DNA from: a virus | Lineage: Duplodnaviria; Heunggongvirae; Uroviricota; Caudoviricetes | IMG/VR virus record: IMGVR_UViG_2609459833_000005 | Location: 1-21,924 of that record | Length of the DNA stretch: 21,924 nt | Direction: 5' to 3' (one strand) | Shown here: positions 4,247 to 10,616 of the stretch, in pieces | Numbering within the stretch: position 1 is the stretch's first letter | How the letters are laid out: the number at the start of each line of letters is the position of its first letter | Notes under the pieces: model-generated | What the model saw: only the letters and a program-made list of their open reading frames with translations | What the model was told of the DNA's origin: nothing | The model's database searches: none | Made by a program: the position numbers and the translations under genes

Positions 4247-6685
4247 TTAAAAATCAGCCTGACTCGGGATCAGTTTTTGCCAGATAACTGAAACGTATTT
4301 TGCCTGGTAACGGGCGTCATCAAGTGCATTATGGCGCTCACCTTCGAATGGAATAGCCGTTCTGGCATCGAAGTCTATGGCTTTCCCCAGCTCAACGATT
4401 GTGCGTACATCGCGATCGTTGTAGTAACGCCACGGGCAGGGGATCCCCTGCCGTTCGTATGAACGGCGCAAAATCGTGTTTTCGAAGTTGGCTCCATTTC
4501 CCCAGACCTGAACAAAAAATTCACCGGAGTTTTCGTCGATAAATTCCCGCAATTGTAACAGTGCATCATCTAACGGGATTTCATCGGTCATAATGGCAGA
4601 CTGCGCTTCACGTGATTGCTTCAGCCACCTTTTAATGACGTCACGATCAATGACTCCGCCAGCAGTTTCCAGATCGATAGTCTTACTAAATTCCGGTCCC
4701 ATATCTCCGGTTTGCGGATCGAAAAATATTGCATCTATTGAGATAATCGGGGCATCAGGATTTTTGCCCATTGTTTCAAGGTCAATCATCAGATGGTGCC
4801 ACAACCTGCTGGTGGATGTGCTTTTACGATGACCGTTCACCTTAATTAAGGGATTTGCTGTCTCGCCTATTTCATTATTGTCATTGGCATGTTGATCGCC
4901 TTCGGTGCACTCCTTGTTCGGGAGTCCGGCACTTTCTATTTCCTCTGGATCTTTTTCCCGGGCTTCATCCTGGCTTTCTTCGTTGAATGTCTCCTGGTAG
5001 GTTGCGTCACCCATCACTGCGCCACAATCAGGGCAGTTACCACCACCAGTCTGATTGCATGCGGTACAAACTTTTTCCTCTTCCTGTTGCACGACTGGTT
5101 CAGGTTGTTTCGTTTCTGGCTCGTTTTGTAACGCATTTGGGCTGTTTTGTTCCGCTTTCTGGTCGTTCTGTTCCGATTCTTGCTGGTTCTGGTTTACAGA
5201 ATCGCGGGTTTCAATCCCCTTTACCCATTTCGGATCATTCGGGTCGCTAATCCCTGCAACAAATTCTCCGCGAGAGGCAGCAAGCAACTTATCGGCGTCA
5301 GGCTGGCTGATATTGGCTGCCTGCATAATTTTGTTTACTTCGTCAGCGGTAACTTTTACCTGTGACTTGTCATCCAGCGGCTGCGGGTCCTGATGATGTT
5401 CAACTGTATCCGCTGCCATTGTTTCAGCCGTTGCCTGTTCATCTGCCATTGCGCCAGATGGTTGCGGGTTATCTTCATCATTTTTTTCTTCTTCTGTTTT
5501 GCACTCAGCAGCCAGTCCGCCGTTAATTTCTTCCAGGATATCTTTTTCCGGTGTATGCCGGGCAGCCATGAGCGTTTCAGCTGTGGGATTCTCGTGATCA
5601 GTTTCTGTCAGGTTGGCATTGATATACCCCTGAAGGCGCCCCGGGTAGTGATAAAACTCAGGGTGGGCGCTTCGGATAAGTGCAAAAATAGCTGCGCGGG
5701 AATAGTCCAGGATACCAGGGGTTGCGCGAAGTGCTGCGGACCATTCCCTGAACGGACTTTCTTTTTTCAGGACGATTTCTTTTGCGCGACGATAAACGCT
5801 GCCCGGAATTTCATAAATATTAAAATCCATCGGAAGTGTGGCTGCTGCAATCTCCACATCCAGCGCATCGAAGGTGTGTACTAAATTCGGATTGCGATCG
5901 GTTTTGTTCCCGCCACCGGCATTTGCACCGGAAGCCGTACGGGTGATACGCGAAACACGATTTCCTTTCATCCACTCTTTTGTCAGCAGACCCCGATCAG
6001 TGTAATCAGCGTCCAGGTATGCCTCGAAAAAAGCAGTTATCAGTCCCAGGTCTGAATTACCGGGATTAGGGAAAACTTTGTCAGTGTCGCGTACCAGTTT
6101 GTGAAGGTCGCGAATCTCCAGCGGGTCGAGCAGCTTTGTTTTGTGAGAAATGGCCAGGGCAGTAACAGCCGGCAGTTCTTCCGCCCGTGCTATATGTAAT
6201 GCCTGAAGTTCTTCCCGTGCAACGTGCGTTACTGGTTTTTCGCTGCTGTGTTGCGCAAGCCAGCGAATGGGCAGCTCCTGACCAGAAACCGGCAGGAGCA
6301 TATTCTCCTCAATCTCCGTCATGTCTTCGCCGTTGACGTTGGTATTGTCAGTACTGGCTGGTTTCTCCTGCACGGAGGGAGAGGGCGCGATAAATACCAT
6401 TGTAATGCCATCTTCCCCGCCTTTTTCGTATCGGTTGCAGAATTCGGTATCAAACACGCCTTCAGGTGGAAGGTCATTCACAACGGGTAAATGGACGCGA
6501 ACGGGTTTTTTAAAGTCGTCTTCATCATAATCGTTGTCATCCATTGCGGTAATGCAGCGGGAGATGGCAACAGATAATTTTTTTGCTGTAGTCCAGTAAA
6601 AACCACCTTTAATTCCCAGACGTTTTCTGACTTTGTCATTTTTTGCTTCGCAATATAGCGCAAATTCTTCTTTATCAGTGCTCAT
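4247..6685 (-). CDS. Exodeoxyribonuclease VIII-like prophage protein with C-terminal DEDDh (DnaQ-like) 3'-5' exonuclease domain
   Basis: 812-aa ORF; C-terminus has MIDLETMG (Exo I D-x-E) and [10 protein letters not shown] (Exo III with His); internal zinc ribbon [16 protein letters not shown]; long acidic low-complexity linker. Position matches the early-left recombination gene of lambdoid prophages. Confidence 0.6.
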
Positions 6686-6777
6686 TGATAAACCTCATTA
6701 CAGATTTAAGGGTGAACAAATCCCTGCCATTGCTGGCATTTTTAATCCGTTGGTATGGTGTTAATATGGCTGGAGGG

Positions 6778-6966
6778 TTATCCAGCCGGTGTTTCGTTAT
6801 TCAGGTACAGCGATACTTTTTTTACCGGGAGGCATTCACCAGAAATTTTTTGCTCGTCTCTTGCCTGGAGGCAGGATTCTTTACTGGCATAAATTCCGGT
6901 AATCACATTCTGTGATTCACCCGTTATAAGAAAAACCGTCATCATCAGTGCAAATGCTGAAGTCAT
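6778..6966 (-). CDS. Small hypothetical protein, positional analogue of Qin YdfD
   Basis: 62-aa ORF overlapping the dicB-like stop (ATGA overlap); hydrophobic N-terminus MTSAFALMMTVFLITG. Assignment by synteny only. Confidence 0.4.
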   Translation of the reverse strand: MTSAFALMMTVFLITGESQNVITGIYASKESCLQARDEQKISGECLPVKKVSLYLNNETPAG

Positions 6967-7151
6967 TGACGCTCTCCGAAAATACCAAGTTCAAGAAGAG
7001 CAATTCGGGAAAGTATGGAATTATCATTGAGCAGATAAGGCTCATATTTCCTCATATTAATGGCATCTTCAGTAAACTCCCGGTTACTGAGCAGAACACC
7101 AATATCAAAACAACCTTCAGACGTATTAACGTTTGGTAATAACGTTTCCAT
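6963..7151 (-). CDS. dicB: DicB-like cell division inhibitor (Kil-type)
   Basis: 62-aa ORF METLLPNVNTSEGCFDIGVLLSNREFTEDAIN... closely matches the remembered N-terminal half of E. coli DicB (MKTLLPNVNTSEGCFEIG...TEDAINKRK); same length. Confidence 0.7.
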   Translation of the reverse strand: METLLPNVNTSEGCFDIGVLLSNREFTEDAINMRKYEPYLLNDNSILSRIALLELGIFGERQ

Positions 7152-7329
7152 TATCGCGTCCTCAACAATGAATTTTGTGATGCAGTGCCTGGTGCCTCCA
7201 GGTGACGTTAACCAGTTAACAATTAACGCCGGGTTAGTTGATGCTCGTTACGCCAGTAAAAGACCGCCTTACTGCTTTAACTGTTCCGCGTGCGCATAGC
7301 CGCATTCACCGCATCACAAAATTCACTTT

Positions 7330-7385
7330 AAAAAGGGTGGCAGAGCAGTCACGGAGTAGAACTGATGCCACCAAATACTACACAT
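7330..7385 (-). ncRNA. dicF: DicF-like small RNA (ftsZ-targeting sRNA of Qin-type prophages) ending in an intrinsic terminator
   Basis: Minus strand reads uuugguggcaucaguucuacuccgugacugcucugccacccuuuuu: stem GGUGGCA/UGCCACC plus U-run, nearly identical to remembered DicF; sits about 180 nt upstream of dicB-like gene as in Qin. Ends approximate. Confidence 0.55.
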
Positions 7386-7685
7386 GGGTATTGTGGCGGG
7401 GCTGTCACTTAAGCGTATGGTCAACCTGACGACCCGGTGCATTTTCTGGAGCAATGGAGGAAGCCCCAGCCATACTTACCGCCGCGCCATTTCGCGGACT
7501 GCCACAACCGGAAGTGCACGGTCGAAGAAATTTAACGACAAGCTTTATATGCAAAGGAATCTCGCCGTGCGCTTTCGTGTTGTGTGCCTGCTTTTAACCA
7601 CGTCAGGCGAGGTGGTTTCCGTCATTCCCCAATAACAGGAAATCTGTATAATCTGGATATCCCCAACAACAGGAAGGTGTTTTAT

Positions 7686-7850: not shown

Positions 7851-8297
7851 ATGGACCGGGATGATATTCTTGACAGGGTTTTATATGGTTATTTTCTTGA
7901 ACAACTATTCTCTGTAGCGACTGGTCGTCTCGATAAACTTTTCTCAGTGGTGAGTATTATCCTCGGTTCATCTGTCATTGGTGGATTTATTCCTGAAGTT
8001 TCTGGAGTTCTCATTGTTGTGATAGCAACCGTTCAAACGATTTACGGATTCGGACAAAAGTCAGGTAACGCAATGAGAAAATCCGCAGAATATCTGCAGC
8101 TTTATGATGATGCAGAAAAATATTCCGATTCGGAATTGAAAATGCAGTTAAAGCTCCTGGAAAAAACAGATGATAATATTTGGTCGTCGCTTAAAGATAT
8201 CGCAATCTTAAAAACCCAGATCAAAATAGGAATCTCCGTAGAACAACAAGAGAAACTGTCTGCAAAATCCAAATTGATGCGATTCCTTTGTGGTTAG
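7851..8297 (+). CDS. Hypothetical two-transmembrane-helix membrane protein (candidate superinfection-exclusion or abortive-infection moron)
   Basis: 148-aa ORF in AT-rich DNA; SD aggtga 7 nt upstream; two adjacent hydrophobic helices (LFSVVSIILGSSVIGGFIPEV, SGVLIVVIATVQTIYGFG) then a charged helical C-terminal domain. Opposite strand to all flanking early genes. Confidence 0.7.
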   Translation: MDRDDILDRVLYGYFLEQLFSVATGRLDKLFSVVSIILGSSVIGGFIPEVSGVLIVVIATVQTIYGFGQKSGNAMRKSAEYLQLYDDAEKYSDSELKMQLKLLEKTDDNIWSSLKDIAILKTQIKIGISVEQQEKLSAKSKLMRFLCG

Positions 8298-8395: not shown

Positions 8396-8635
8396 TCAGT
8401 CAGAGTTTCTTGCTAACCAGCGACGCGCGCCAGCTTCCGTTTTAAACGTTTTGCTTCTGGTATACGTCATCGCGGTAAACGTGCCGTCCAGGTTGGGGAA
8501 TACTCCACATACCAGAGATTCGTTGTTGCCAAGCTCGATAGTATCCATGCTGACCTCATTTCCCCTTAACGCCGGGGTAGCGGAACTAAAAACCTGCTGC
8601 GCTGTTATACAAAGTGTTCCCGCCGTCATGTTCAT
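8396..8635 (-). CDS. Hypothetical early protein, first ORF of the leftward operon
   Basis: 79-aa ORF directly downstream of the leftward operator/promoter region; basic C-terminus TRSKTFKTEAGARRWLARNSD. Overlapping plus-strand ORF 8328-8657 judged less protein-like. Confidence 0.45.
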   Translation of the reverse strand: MNMTAGTLCITAQQVFSSATPALRGNEVSMDTIELGNNESLVCGVFPNLDGTFTAMTYTRSKTFKTEAGARRWLARNSD

Positions 8636-8728
8636 ACGCCTCGGGCTGGCTACTTAACCCCTGACCACTGCCGGGTAACTCGAAGTATTGCCCTGCATTC
8701 TGTGGGGAGGGTGGGTGATGAATAAACA

Positions 8729-8768
8729 ATAGCACTGCTATTTTATTCTGTTAAATAGTAATGCTATT
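8729..8768 (-). promoter_or_regulatory. Leftward early promoter with two repressor operators (OL-like)
   Basis: 15-bp palindromes AATAGCACTGCTATT (8729-8743) and AATAGTAATGCTATT (8754-8768), centres 25 bp apart. On the minus strand these overlap a -35-like TTTAAC and -10-like TATTGT reading toward 8635. Confidence 0.65.
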
Positions 8769-8784
8769 GTTTTTTGGAGGTAAG

Positions 8785-8807
8785 AAAAAAAAACCACCCG
8801 AAGGTGG
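8785..8807 (-). terminator. Rho-independent terminator after parE
   Basis: Hairpin ccacc-cgaa-ggtgg (8794-8807) followed on the minus strand by a 9-U run (8785-8793). Confidence 0.75.
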
Positions 8808-8823
8808 TTGTTGGTAGGAATGA

Positions 8824-9114
8824 TTAACAGCTTTTGTTTGGATACTGCCTTCGTGAGTGAACTACATTTACGATCTCGATGTTAGATGCTGTTACTCGGT
8901 AAAGTATTATGTAGTTAGGATGGGTCACTATCTCACGAAGGCCTAGAGCTCTTTCGCTTGGTGGATACAGGTAAGGGTGTTCAGTAAGTGACAAAACTGA
9001 TGTTTCAATGCGTATTTTTAGTCTACGTGCAGCGGGAGGGTTTTCCTTGGCAATATAGGCTACGATCTGACGCAAATCATCACGCGCAGAAGGTAGCCAT
9101 AAAATGGGCAGCAT
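8824..9114 (-). CDS. parE: ParE/RelE-superfamily type II toxin
   Basis: 96-aa ORF with ParE-like motifs (ARDDLRQIVAYIAKENPPAARRL, YIILYRV, IEIVNVVHSRR); start overlaps the stop of the upstream 63-aa ORF. Confidence 0.8.
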   Translation of the reverse strand: MLPILWLPSARDDLRQIVAYIAKENPPAARRLKIRIETSVLSLTEHPYLYPPSERALGLREIVTHPNYIILYRVTASNIEIVNVVHSRRQYPNKSC

Positions 9115-9305
9115 TACTCACTCCTGTTCGTCGAAGCTATTTGCGCAATAAGGTTTTCCATTTCAGCCATTACTTCGTCATGCGGAATTGCAGGACGGGG
9201 GTCTGCGAGGCTTGCTGCCACTTTGGTGCGTAACCATTCGTTATAGCTGTTTTCTTGTTCGATTGTTTCAAATTCTGAAATTATCGGGGAAAGGACTGTA
9301 CTCAT
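9114..9305 (-). CDS. Small antitoxin partner of ParE (PaaA-like, 63 aa)
   Basis: 63-aa acidic ORF with strong SD gaggagg 8 nt upstream; translationally coupled to parE. Size and context match the PaaA antitoxins of three-component PaaR-PaaA-ParE systems described in E. coli O157 prophages; family assignment from memory. Confidence 0.6.
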   Translation of the reverse strand: MSTVLSPIISEFETIEQENSYNEWLRTKVAASLADPRPAIPHDEVMAEMENLIAQIASTNRSE

Positions 9306-9322
9306 GTTCTAACCTCCTCAGA

Positions 9323-9823
9323 TTAGGCGCGAAGACCTTTTTGCGCCTCTAGCCACCGCGCAACGGTTTCTTCAATTGATTCTTTTTTCTCCTTCATTTC
9401 CTTAAGCATTTTCTCTTTGTCTTCTTTTGGGAAAGCCCTGAACGTCTGGATCAAATCTCGCTCTATAGGTTCTATATTAAACGGAAGTTCGTTTTCCGAT
9501 TGTTCCATCTCTGCGGGTAAAGCGACAACATTATCCTGCTGCAGTTCTTGGGGGTACATCCTTACAATTCGTAACAAGTCTGCCATATCTGGTCTAATTG
9601 ACTCAGGCGGAACTTGTAGCAACCCAGCGAACTTGATAACAGCCTCTAGATTTAAAGGTGTCTGACCATTTAGATAATGGCTTACTGCCCCTTGTGTCGA
9701 AAAACCCAGAATTTCTGCCGCACGCTCTTGGGTTAACCCAAGTTGAGTTTTTTTCGTCGTCCAGATTTCTTTCAGTCTCTGGGCGGCTTGCAGGTCGATC
9801 TCTGACAGGGGTTTTCTTTTCAT
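9323..9823 (-). CDS. Prophage repressor / transcriptional regulator, HTH XRE-family (PaaR- or DicA-like), no autocleavage domain
   Basis: 166-aa ORF; N-terminal HTH (LGLTQERAAEILGFSTQGAVSHYLNG); C-terminus charged and helical with no S24 peptidase Ser/Lys or Ala-Gly motifs; divergent from the cro-like gene across an operator-bearing intergenic region. Confidence 0.75.
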   Translation of the reverse strand: MKRKPLSEIDLQAAQRLKEIWTTKKTQLGLTQERAAEILGFSTQGAVSHYLNGQTPLNLEAVIKFAGLLQVPPESIRPDMADLLRIVRMYPQELQQDNVVALPAEMEQSENELPFNIEPIERDLIQTFRAFPKEDKEKMLKEMKEKKESIEETVARWLEAQKGLRA

Positions 9824-9858
9824 ACCTTCAATTCTAATAAGATTATTAATCTCTTTGA

Positions 9859-9898
9859 AATAGCAGTGCTATTTACTTTTAAAAATAACAATGCTATT
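9859..9898 (+). promoter_or_regulatory. Rightward early promoter with two repressor operators (OR-like), shared with the divergent repressor promoter
   Basis: 15-bp palindromes AATAGCAGTGCTATT (9859-9873) and AATAACAATGCTATT (9884-9898), centres 25 bp apart, overlapping -35-like TTTACT (9872-9877) and -10-like TATTAA (9895-9900); same architecture as the OL region. Confidence 0.7.
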
Positions 9899-9930
9899 AA
9901 TATTCATGGTCACATAACATGAGGTGAACA

Positions 9931-10194
9931 ATGAATCTTGGAGAATATTTGCATCATTCCCGTATAACCCAGAAAGATTTTGCTGAAATTGTTGGGGTAA
10001 CCCAAGGGATGGTAAGCCATGTTATTACTGGACGGGCGAAACTTACGGGGGGGAAAGTTTTACGCTGGTGTGAAGCAACAGGGTGGGTAGTGACCCCGCA
10101 CGAGATTGATAGCAGTACTTACCCCAACCCAACCGATGGCATACCTGTTGACTATCAGGCTAACACACAACCCGCGCTGGGAGTTGATTCATGA
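9931..10194 (+). CDS. Cro-like HTH regulator
   Basis: 87-aa ORF with HTH (ITQKDFAEIVGVTQGMVSHVITG), first gene transcribed rightward from the operator region; SD gaggtga upstream. Confidence 0.75.
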   Translation: MNLGEYLHHSRITQKDFAEIVGVTQGMVSHVITGRAKLTGGKVLRWCEATGWVVTPHEIDSSTYPNPTDGIPVDYQANTQPALGVDS

Positions 10195-10616
10195 AAATCA
10201 AGCATGAACACATCCGCATGGCGATGAATGTCTGGGCGCATCCGGACGGCGAAAAAGTACCGGCTGCGAAAATTACCAAAGCGTATTTCGAGCTGGGAAT
10301 GACGTTCCCGGAACTGTATGACGACAGCCATCCGGAAGCCCTGGCCCGTAATACCCAGAAAATTTTCCGTTGGCTGGATAAAGACACCCCTGATGCTGTT
10401 GAAAAAATGCAGGCTCTGTTACCGGCGATCGAAAAGGCGATGCCGCCTTTGCTGGTGGCCCGTATGCGCAGTCACAGCTCTGAATATTACCGTGAGATCG
10501 TCGAACGGAGGGATCGGCTGGGGAAAGATGTGGATGATTTTGTCGCAGCGGCGATCGCCTGGGGCACCCTGACTAACAGTGGTGGTCAGCCTGGTAATGC
10601 TGTTGTCGTGCATTGA
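10191..10616 (+). CDS. YdaT-like (CII-like) protein
   Basis: 141-aa ORF beginning MKIKHEHI and ending ...AVVVH, resembling remembered Rac YdaT; located directly after cro as in Rac (racR-ydaS-ydaT). Confidence 0.5.
   Translation: MKIKHEHIRMAMNVWAHPDGEKVPAAKITKAYFELGMTFPELYDDSHPEALARNTQKIFRWLDKDTPDAVEKMQALLPAIEKAMPPLLVARMRSHSSEYYREIVERRDRLGKDVDDFVAAAIAWGTLTNSGGQPGNAVVVH

Follow-up and report, generated by a model that had tools for sequence, protein, structure and literature searches.

Paired palindromes around a prophage repressor-toxin-antitoxin operon as predicted operators of a lambda-CI-like repressor

Which protein, if any, is served by two pairs of short palindromes that frame the immunity genes of a prophage? 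The question arises from a 21,924-bp stretch of viral DNA, IMGVR_UViG_2609459833_000005 (the window, in whose numbering positions are given here), in which a leftward operon for a 166-amino-acid (aa) repressor and a toxin-antitoxin (TA) pair lies between two sets of 15-bp palindromes. A reading of the letters alone (the original prediction) had taken these sets for operators of the repressor in an arrangement like the left (OL) and right (OR) operators of phage lambda. The core of that proposal is supported by our analysis: since position, homology and comparative data agree, the four palindromes are predicted, with a probability of about 85%, to be OL/OR-type operators of the 166-aa repressor that flank its own operon and overlap outward promoters.

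A search of the window for AATAGCAnTGCTATT with up to 2 mismatches returned exactly four matches, the two matching pairs originally proposed, and none elsewhere; in 100 dinucleotide-preserving shuffles the chance expectation was 0.11, and no shuffle reached four. Allowing up to 3 mismatches added no site anywhere in the window, and no other repeated motif common to the OL and OR regions was found. OL1 (8728-8742, AATAGCACTGCTATT) and OR2 (9859-9873, AATAGCAGTGCTATT) are perfect palindromes, whereas OL2 (8754-8768, AATAGTAATGCTATT) and OR1 (9884-9898, AATAACAATGCTATT) have one mismatch each. The first site starts at 8728, one position before the 8729 proposed; the 25-bp centre spacing given for both pairs applies to OR1-OR2, and OL1-OL2 measures 26 bp. 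A third OL site, looked for at plus or minus 25 bp, was not found; OL has just two sites, because a terminator sits where a third would be. This intrinsic terminator (8809..8792, minus strand; a 7-bp stem with 4 G-C pairs and a T run) ends the repressor-paaA2-parE operon just upstream of OL2. A 66-bp OL query matched one place in each of 28 of 5,426 E. coli genomes.

The 26-bp spacing of OL results from a 1-bp insertion that is unique to the window among 29 distinct OL variants, the other variants having 24 to 28 bp, mostly 25. On the minus strand the spacer (8743-8753) reads TTTAACAG, where the other 28 variants have TTTACAG/C/T. The insertion weakens the -35 element of the leftward promoter PL (TTTACA to TTAACA) and moves the centres of OL1 and OL2 from 25 to 26 bp apart; a genuine mutation and a sequencing error are both possible.

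We next compared the sites among close relatives, a set of seven E. coli and 44 IMG/VR loci with repressor N-terminal domains 84 to 100% identical. The sites lie at the same places in all of these loci (OL1, for instance, in L002-L008 and L030-L073), and removal of duplicates left 22 distinct OR and 29 distinct OL sequences. Among 34 distinct strong sites, positions 1-4 (AATA) are unchanged in 68 of 68 half-sites, and 52 half-sites have G at position 5; only C or T occurs at position 6 and only A or G at position 7, and any base is allowed at the centre. Because AATA/TATT is invariant, G5/C11 is favoured and positions 6-10 are free, AATAG-N5-CTATT is a better description of the motif than AATAGCAnTGCTATT. 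The repressor motif as first read from the sequence was thus right in its outer AATAG/CTATT bases and wrong in its fixed centre. Variable columns of the OR alignment number 3 of 30 in the outer parts of the sites, 8 of 15 in their centres and 12 of 40 outside the sites. In the 44 IMG/VR loci, all 163 matches to the strict pattern at up to 2 mismatches fell within the two operator zones; the 200,028 positions beyond these zones had none.

The centre of OR2 (9864-9868) behaves differently from its surroundings: all five columns vary among the 22 distinct OR sequences, giving 12 OR2 variants in prophages that are otherwise near-identical, and the 35 bp from OR2 to the repressor ATG are almost invariant (5/5 variable columns in the OR2 centre versus 18/80; one-sided Fisher p = 0.001, indicative only). 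This variation could reflect relaxed constraint or tuning of affinity. In two IMG/VR loci (L072 and L073), the repressor gene (from position 2501) is frameshifted and the operators and TA genes are intact; both look like prophages of the same type in decay.

Outward -35/-10-like hexamers had been noted over the sites, and both promoters were found again, PL by promoter scan and the rightward PR by eye. PL (8754..8726, minus strand) has the -35 element TTAACA (8754..8749; TTTACA in most relatives), a 17-bp spacer and the -10 element TATTGT (8731..8726) after TG; PR (9872-9900, plus strand) has TTTACT (9872-9877), a 17-bp spacer and TATTAA (9895-9900), also after TG. The two are built alike, in that the last T's of the distal site open the -35 element and the TGCTATT arm of the proximal site is the TGn-extended -10. 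OL2 thereby abuts the PL -35, and the right ends of OL1 and OR1 are the extended -10 elements of PL and PR, respectively. PR is conserved in 21 of 22 distinct relatives. The scan also found a PRM-like promoter for the repressor (9859..9831, minus strand), with -35 TTCAAA (9859..9854), a 17-bp spacer and -10 TAGAAT (9836..9831); OR2 shares one base with its -35 and two bases with that of PR. The -10 ends 7 nt upstream of the repressor ATG, a usable Shine-Dalgarno sequence is absent, and the same geometry recurs in relatives; the repressor mRNA from this predicted promoter is probably leaderless.

Counted from the repressor ATG as a leaderless start, OR2 is centred at -43 and OR1 at -68, and homologous position in relatives points to a degenerate candidate, OR3, centred at -20 (9836-9850, ATTAATAATCTTATT on the minus strand). 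OR3 would lie between the -35 and -10 of PRM, its centre 23 bp from that of OR2; the pattern search missed it because of four central mismatches. Relatives have better matches at this position with 23-25-bp spacing, including L011 (ATTAGCAATACTATT, 1 mismatch), L062 (ATTAGCAATCTTATT), L014 (ATTAGCAATACAAAT) and L079, and two variants of the close family, ATTAGCAATCTTATT and ATTAGTAATCTTATT, are near the consensus. OR is probably a three-site operator like that of lambda, with a weak OR3. The initial count of two sites in each operator, rather than three, is then right for OL and probably wrong for OR.

The alternative is that OR has two functional sites only and that 9836-9850 is a part of PRM, a decayed remnant that does not bind. 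Besides its four central mismatches, the candidate has T at position 2 and escapes detection even at 3 mismatches. Close relatives show almost no change anywhere between OR2 and the ATG, which leaves conservation unable to distinguish 9836-9850, and the invariance of OR3 is inseparable from constraint on PRM itself. These points tell against a third site; against them stand the much better matches in relatives at equal spacing and the near-consensus variants of the close family, and in lambda OR3 is likewise the weakest CI site. A two-site OR seems to us possible, if somewhat unlikely.

The repressor gene (9323-9823, minus strand) encodes an N-terminal helix-turn-helix (HTH) region of about residues 1-90 and a C-terminal domain of about residues 103-166. 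Residues 2-82 match the lambda repressor (1lmb, E = 1.6e-9 by phmmer against PDB; Pfam HTH_3), the basic N-terminal arm MKRKPL corresponds to STKKKPL of lambda CI, and two acidic residues, E33 and E37, stand opposite lambda E34 and D38 in the alignment, lambda residues that act in PRM activation. The C-terminal domain belongs elsewhere: residues 103-166 align with the C-terminal domain of PaaR2, the regulator of prophage CP-933P, at 56% identity over 64 aa, and the NCBIfam DicA model NF007257 matches residues 107-162 with its C-terminal part (E = 1e-6; 28.7 bits against a cut-off of 101). A Pfam search of the repressor gave no match to Peptidase_S24, the domain of self-cleaving repressors. On this evidence, the repressor is best described as a lambda-CI-like N-terminal domain joined to a PaaR2/DicA-like C-terminal domain. 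We also considered whether it is PaaR2 itself and rejected this, since the N-terminal domains do not align, leaving the homology confined to the C-terminal domain, and the CP-933P operators are unrelated.

Downstream in the same operon are a PaaA2-type antitoxin gene (9114-9305, minus strand; 63 aa; PF21217, E = 2.9e-22; PDB 3zbe, E = 1.7e-22) and a ParE-family toxin gene (8824-9114, minus strand; 96 aa; PF05016, E = 4e-18; ParE2, PDB 5cw7, E = 5.7e-35). The genes stand in the CP-933P order regulator-PaaA2-ParE, here with a 17-nt gap and then a 1-nt overlap. The palindromes do frame an immunity cassette, as proposed, although not a plain cI gene but a repressor-PaaA2-ParE operon whose regulator has a PaaR2/DicA-like tail and lacks S24.

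Divergent from the repressor, across a 107-bp intergenic region (9824-9930) that holds OR1, OR2 and the weak OR3 over PR and PRM, lies a Cro/YdaS-like gene (9931-10194, plus strand) for an 87-aa HTH protein. It is 33% identical to the repressor over 63 residues, and the recognition helices are near-identical (TQGMVSHVITG in the Cro/YdaS-like protein versus TQGAVSHYLNG in the repressor); the two genes are divergent paralogues. A 32-nt inverted repeat (9666-9697 and 10000-10031, 72% complementary) corresponds to the DNA encoding the HTH of each.

To follow the motif and the protein together, distant relatives were collected by alignment of the N-terminal domain, which gave 19 reference-genome and 80 IMG/VR loci at 42 to 100% identity, from genera including Citrobacter, Yersinia, Rouxiella, Providencia, Proteus, Arsenophonus, Escherichia (E. 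albertii), Methylobacter, Stenotrophomonas and Xanthomonas. Loci with the recognition helix TQGAVS(H/Q)(Y/L)LN carry A(A/T)TAG-N5-CTA(A/T)T upstream of the repressor, typically near -75, -50 and -27 from the ATG; such sites are found in Citrobacter, Providencia, Proteus, Arsenophonus, Stenotrophomonas, Methylobacter and Shiga toxin (Stx) phages. Most of these TQGAVS-type loci have one or two further sites just past the repressor operon, at +520 to +1090 depending on operon content; in relatives, OL is always found beyond the end of that operon. Where the helix is TQASVSHYLN or TQSTVSQYLN, these positions are taken by different palindromes, such as ATTAATAACGTTAAT and ATTACCGCTACGAAT. The partner genes transcribed divergently from the repressor form a single YdaS-like family, and in 11 enterobacterial representatives the residue after VS agrees between repressor and partner (H/H or Q/Q), which fits both proteins reading the same DNA.

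The association was also approached from the DNA side. An exact scan of IMG/VR for AATAG-N5-CTATT-N9-12-AATAG-N5-CTATT found 49 loci, of which 27 have an N-terminal-domain relative detectable by tblastn; a hidden Markov model recovered the family in 33, with a distance of no more than 1.3 kb from the paired motif in 31. Among the other stretches, several are just 1-2 kb long or consist of AT-rich tandem repeats. Two named regulators, CI of the Stx2 phage Lyz12581Vzw (L009) and "DicA" of Rac-SA53 (L010), have N-terminal domains about 54% identical to that of the repressor, and AATAGTCTAGCTATT and AATAGTCAGACTATC stand in their cI-cro intergenic regions (L009 2380-2510 and L010 2350-2480); the operator type therefore extends to Shiga toxin phages.

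Several observations weigh against the operator assignment. In Yersinia and Rouxiella the same helix goes with AATAAC/AATACC half-sites, and the altered helices of L093, L106 and L109 go with near-matching sites. A one-to-one code between recognition helix and operator was rejected on account of these loci, which leave a trend only. The compared loci share descent, so that the conservation counts and p values are to be read as indicative. PR has 8 of 12 consensus matches, under the threshold of the promoter scan, and the scan itself yielded 3 sites in the window versus 2.9 in shuffles; the hexamers alone are consequently weak evidence, and their geometry is supportive rather than decisive.

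The same data bear on who binds. It is conceivable that the palindromes are bound by the Cro/YdaS-like protein only and that the 166-aa repressor reads something else, as the HTH of this protein includes the helix TQGMVSHVITG and the protein is always present beside the sites in enterobacterial loci. However, the repressor helix is nearly the same, with the matching residue after VS in the 11 representatives; silencing of PL from OL is the task of the repressor in lambda, Qin and CP-933P; and the OL and OR regions share no second repeated motif. We consider binding by the Cro-like protein alone very unlikely. A role as TA autoregulatory operators, read by a PaaA2-ParE complex on the pattern of classical type II systems, where antitoxins bind palindromes at their own promoter, would suit the position of the palindromes on both sides of the TA operon. 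It is highly improbable given that PaaA2 lacks a DNA-binding domain (PMC8630535), that Pfam finds no DNA-binding family in the antitoxin here and only the PaaA2 stability-determinant family, that the same sites stand beside repressor relatives without TA genes in Providencia, Yersinia and Stx phages, and that CP-933P has a homologous TA pair and none of these sites. Chance palindromes with no dedicated binder, although short palindromes are common in AT-rich intergenic promoter DNA, are scarcely credible in view of four matches versus 0.11 expected, 163 matches inside versus 0 outside the operator zones, outer bases that stay invariant while centres and spacers drift, and a tie to one HTH family that crosses bacterial orders.

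If the four palindromes are operators of the repressor, a switch can be outlined in which binding, PRM activation, looping and the mode of induction are inferred from the observed sites, positions, homologies and family-wide association. The repressor, presumably a dimer in view of the palindromic sites and the lambda CI precedent, would bind AATAG-N5-CTATT. Occupancy of OR1 over the PR extended -10 and of OR2 over the PR -35 would turn off the Cro/YdaS-like gene, ydaT and the downstream replication genes. OR2 at -43 is in the position from which lambda CI activates PRM, and the repressor therefore probably stimulates its own leaderless transcript; at OR2 it could touch sigma through E33/E37. 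The PRM transcript would also carry paaA2-parE. Excess repressor at OR3, or the Cro-like protein there, would shut PRM, giving negative autoregulation in the first case or shut-off in the second. OL1 and OL2, over the -10 and -35 of PL, would silence the leftward genes ydfA-DicF-dicB-recE, as DicA does at dicBp in Qin (PMC10448788).

Given its near-identical recognition helix, the Cro-like protein most likely competes with the repressor for the same sites, which would make a bistable switch. The PaaR2-like tail makes an OL-OR loop of about 1.13 kb plausible, PaaR2 being octameric; as a point against so specific a scheme, oligomerization and looping are argued from 56% identity to the PaaR2 C-terminal domain plus the PaaR2 literature. 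With no S24 domain, induction would not go through RecA-stimulated self-cleavage. An antirepressor or stochastic switching would be required instead, of the sort reported for DicA (PMC10448788) and PaaR2 (PMC8630535).

The tails attached to this N-terminal domain differ among relatives. In Providencia, Proteus, Stenotrophomonas and the Stx2 phage the domain belongs to longer proteins of about 220-284 aa, which have a GxSM motif; the Lyz12581Vzw protein is annotated as a LexA-family regulator, and S24 in the other long members is suggested by length and the GxSM motif alone. Proteins of about 150 aa with short tails occur in Yersinia and others. The combination of the N-terminal domain with a PaaR2-like tail and PaaA2-ParE is confined to the E. 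coli group, and a Citrobacter locus (L011) has the PaaR2-like tail without TA genes. We offer tentatively, with the odds against it, the broader proposal that the N-terminal domain and its AATAG-N5-CTATT operators form an exchangeable cassette joined to at least three C-terminal modules (probable S24, PaaR2/DicA-type and short tails). Here, a PaaR2-type oligomerizing tail, together with precisely four strong sites (2 + 2), would loop about 1.1 kb around the repressor-TA operon, creating an SOS-independent bistable switch in which the TA pair protects against deletion and the OR2 centre serves as a tuning knob.

The surrounding genes identify the locus. The Cro/YdaS-like gene is followed by ydaT, the CII equivalent (10191-10616, plus strand; PDB 8bt1, E = 1.8e-82), whose product hardly differs from CP-933P YdaT at residues 2-121 and diverges more at the C terminus, and then by DnaT-like and lambda-P-like replication genes. 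At the cro-like/ydaT junction, TTGATTCATGAAAATCAA (10184-10201) is the single exact match in the window to TTGATT-N6-AATCAA, published as the primary YdaT site of CP-933P (PMC9986795). The site lies where OM does in CP-933P and implies a putative leftward PRE-like promoter there. To the left of OL, PL would serve a DUF1391/ydfA-like gene (8396-8635), DicF, dicB and a RecE-like exonuclease gene; the dicB annotation is taken from the 99.9%-identical locus L002, and the DicF small RNA (sRNA; 7335-7386, minus strand) is an Rfam gathering-level match inside the PL operon. L002 is a prophage of E. coli SW070917 that adjoins potD and has an integrase and an excisionase. These gene surroundings mark the locus as the immunity region of a Rac/Qin-type lambdoid E. 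coli prophage. Of 5,426 complete E. coli genomes, 72 have 80% or more of this 2.4-kb region; megablast of the region against sequenced phage records matched flanks only and returned no phage with this immunity region.

Some further features of the prophage were recorded. In L002, an IS4 element (6065-7411) lies between the exonuclease gene and the DUF1482/dicB genes; this insertion is absent from the window. A 148-aa open reading frame (7851-8297, plus strand), which runs opposite to the PL operon and is listed as hypothetical in L002, gave a match to PHROG 6315 (unknown function; E = 6e-24) but none in Pfam or NCBIfam; it may be a moron gene. The other Rfam gathering-level matches (16033-16207, 20463-20711 and 21543-21748, all on the plus strand) are a hok/sok locus, three consecutive tRNA genes and the sRNA STnc100.

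AATAG-N5-CTATT offers a testable operator definition for an N-terminal-domain family spread across enterobacterial and other gammaproteobacterial prophages, some Stx2 phages included, and could be used in annotating prophage immunity groups and predicting superinfection immunity. The immunity and TA architecture of CP-933P exists in at least one further, heteroimmune specificity, and the repressor described here is a natural domain-swap partner for the PaaR2 system. It reveals no new mechanism and would not surprise a specialist. The searchable literature, which was queried with operator strings of the window and its relatives and did not take in subscription-only papers, yielded no account of the repressor, the operator sequence or the family-wide layout.

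Among known systems, lambda shares with this locus a homologous repressor N-terminal domain, divergent PR/PRM promoters, and three OR sites (the third a candidate here), with spacings of 25 and 23 bp here and 24 and 23 bp in lambda. OR2 is centred near -42/-43 and the cI-type mRNA is leaderless (predicted here); the -20/-43/-68 series is essentially the geometry of lambda PRM. Accessory genes lie between cI and OL in both (rexAB in lambda, paaA2-parE here), and a CII-type activator site is at the cro/cII junction. Unlike those of lambda, the sites are 15 bp long and differ in sequence, OL has two sites rather than three, the C-terminal domain is not S24, the Cro-like protein is a paralogue of the repressor HTH, and the CII equivalent is YdaT/POU-type. 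In phage 434, the repressor N-terminal domain and Cro are also paralogous with similar recognition helices, and the 14-bp operators have conserved outer bases (ACAA...TTGT) and a variable centre without direct contacts, much as AATAG...CTATT encloses a variable centre here. However, no close relationship in sequence could be detected (lambda CI entries were all that the PDB search gave), and the sites differ in length and sequence.

The DicA/DicC system of Qin likewise has a short repressor without RecA cleavage, and dicBp drives ydfA ... DicF ... dicB (Ragunathan et al. 2023, PMC10448788). In both prophages the repressor gene is followed by a repressed promoter in the same direction (PL here, as predicted, and dicBp in Qin) that leads into ydfA ... 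DicF ... dicB. Here, in contrast to Qin, the N-terminal domain is of another family, a TA pair separates the repressor from PL, and the match to the DicA model falls far below its cut-off.

The nearest precedent is the paaR2-paaA2-parE2/ydaS-ydaT region of the cryptic prophage CP-933P (Sp12, E. coli O157:H7), which has been studied by electrophoretic mobility shift assays, DNase I footprints, reporters and 5' RACE (rapid amplification of cDNA ends) (Jurenas et al. 2021, PMC8630535). There, PaaR2 is the CI analogue and YdaS the Cro analogue; both bind the PR/PRM intergenic region and, in reporters, repress PL just past parE2 (PMC8630535). The paaR2 mRNA is leaderless by 5' RACE, PaaR2 is octameric and has no self-cleavage motif, and PaaA2 has no DNA-binding domain (PMC8630535). 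The locus described here has the same leftward regulator-PaaA2-ParE and rightward YdaS-like-YdaT genes, the YdaT site at the same junction (Prolic-Kalinsek et al. 2023, PMC9986795), predicted operator sets at PR/PRM and at PL just past parE, a -10 right before the regulator ATG, and no S24. It differs in a lambda-CI-like regulator N-terminal domain unrelated to that of PaaR2, in a Cro-like protein 37% identical to CP-933P YdaS, and in its operators, which are 15-bp AATAG-N5-CTATT sites rather than 18-bp palindromes with the half-site GTTTAGTAA. The intergenic sequences of CP-933P have no motif in common with the window, and its locus (L001) contains no AATAG-N5-CTATT site apart from one chance 3-mismatch match in the exonuclease gene, far from the operators. 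From their sequences, this prophage and CP-933P are taken to be heteroimmune. The kind of system is one known from lambda, Qin DicA/DicC and CP-933P, to which the predicted repressor described here adds a heteroimmune specificity.

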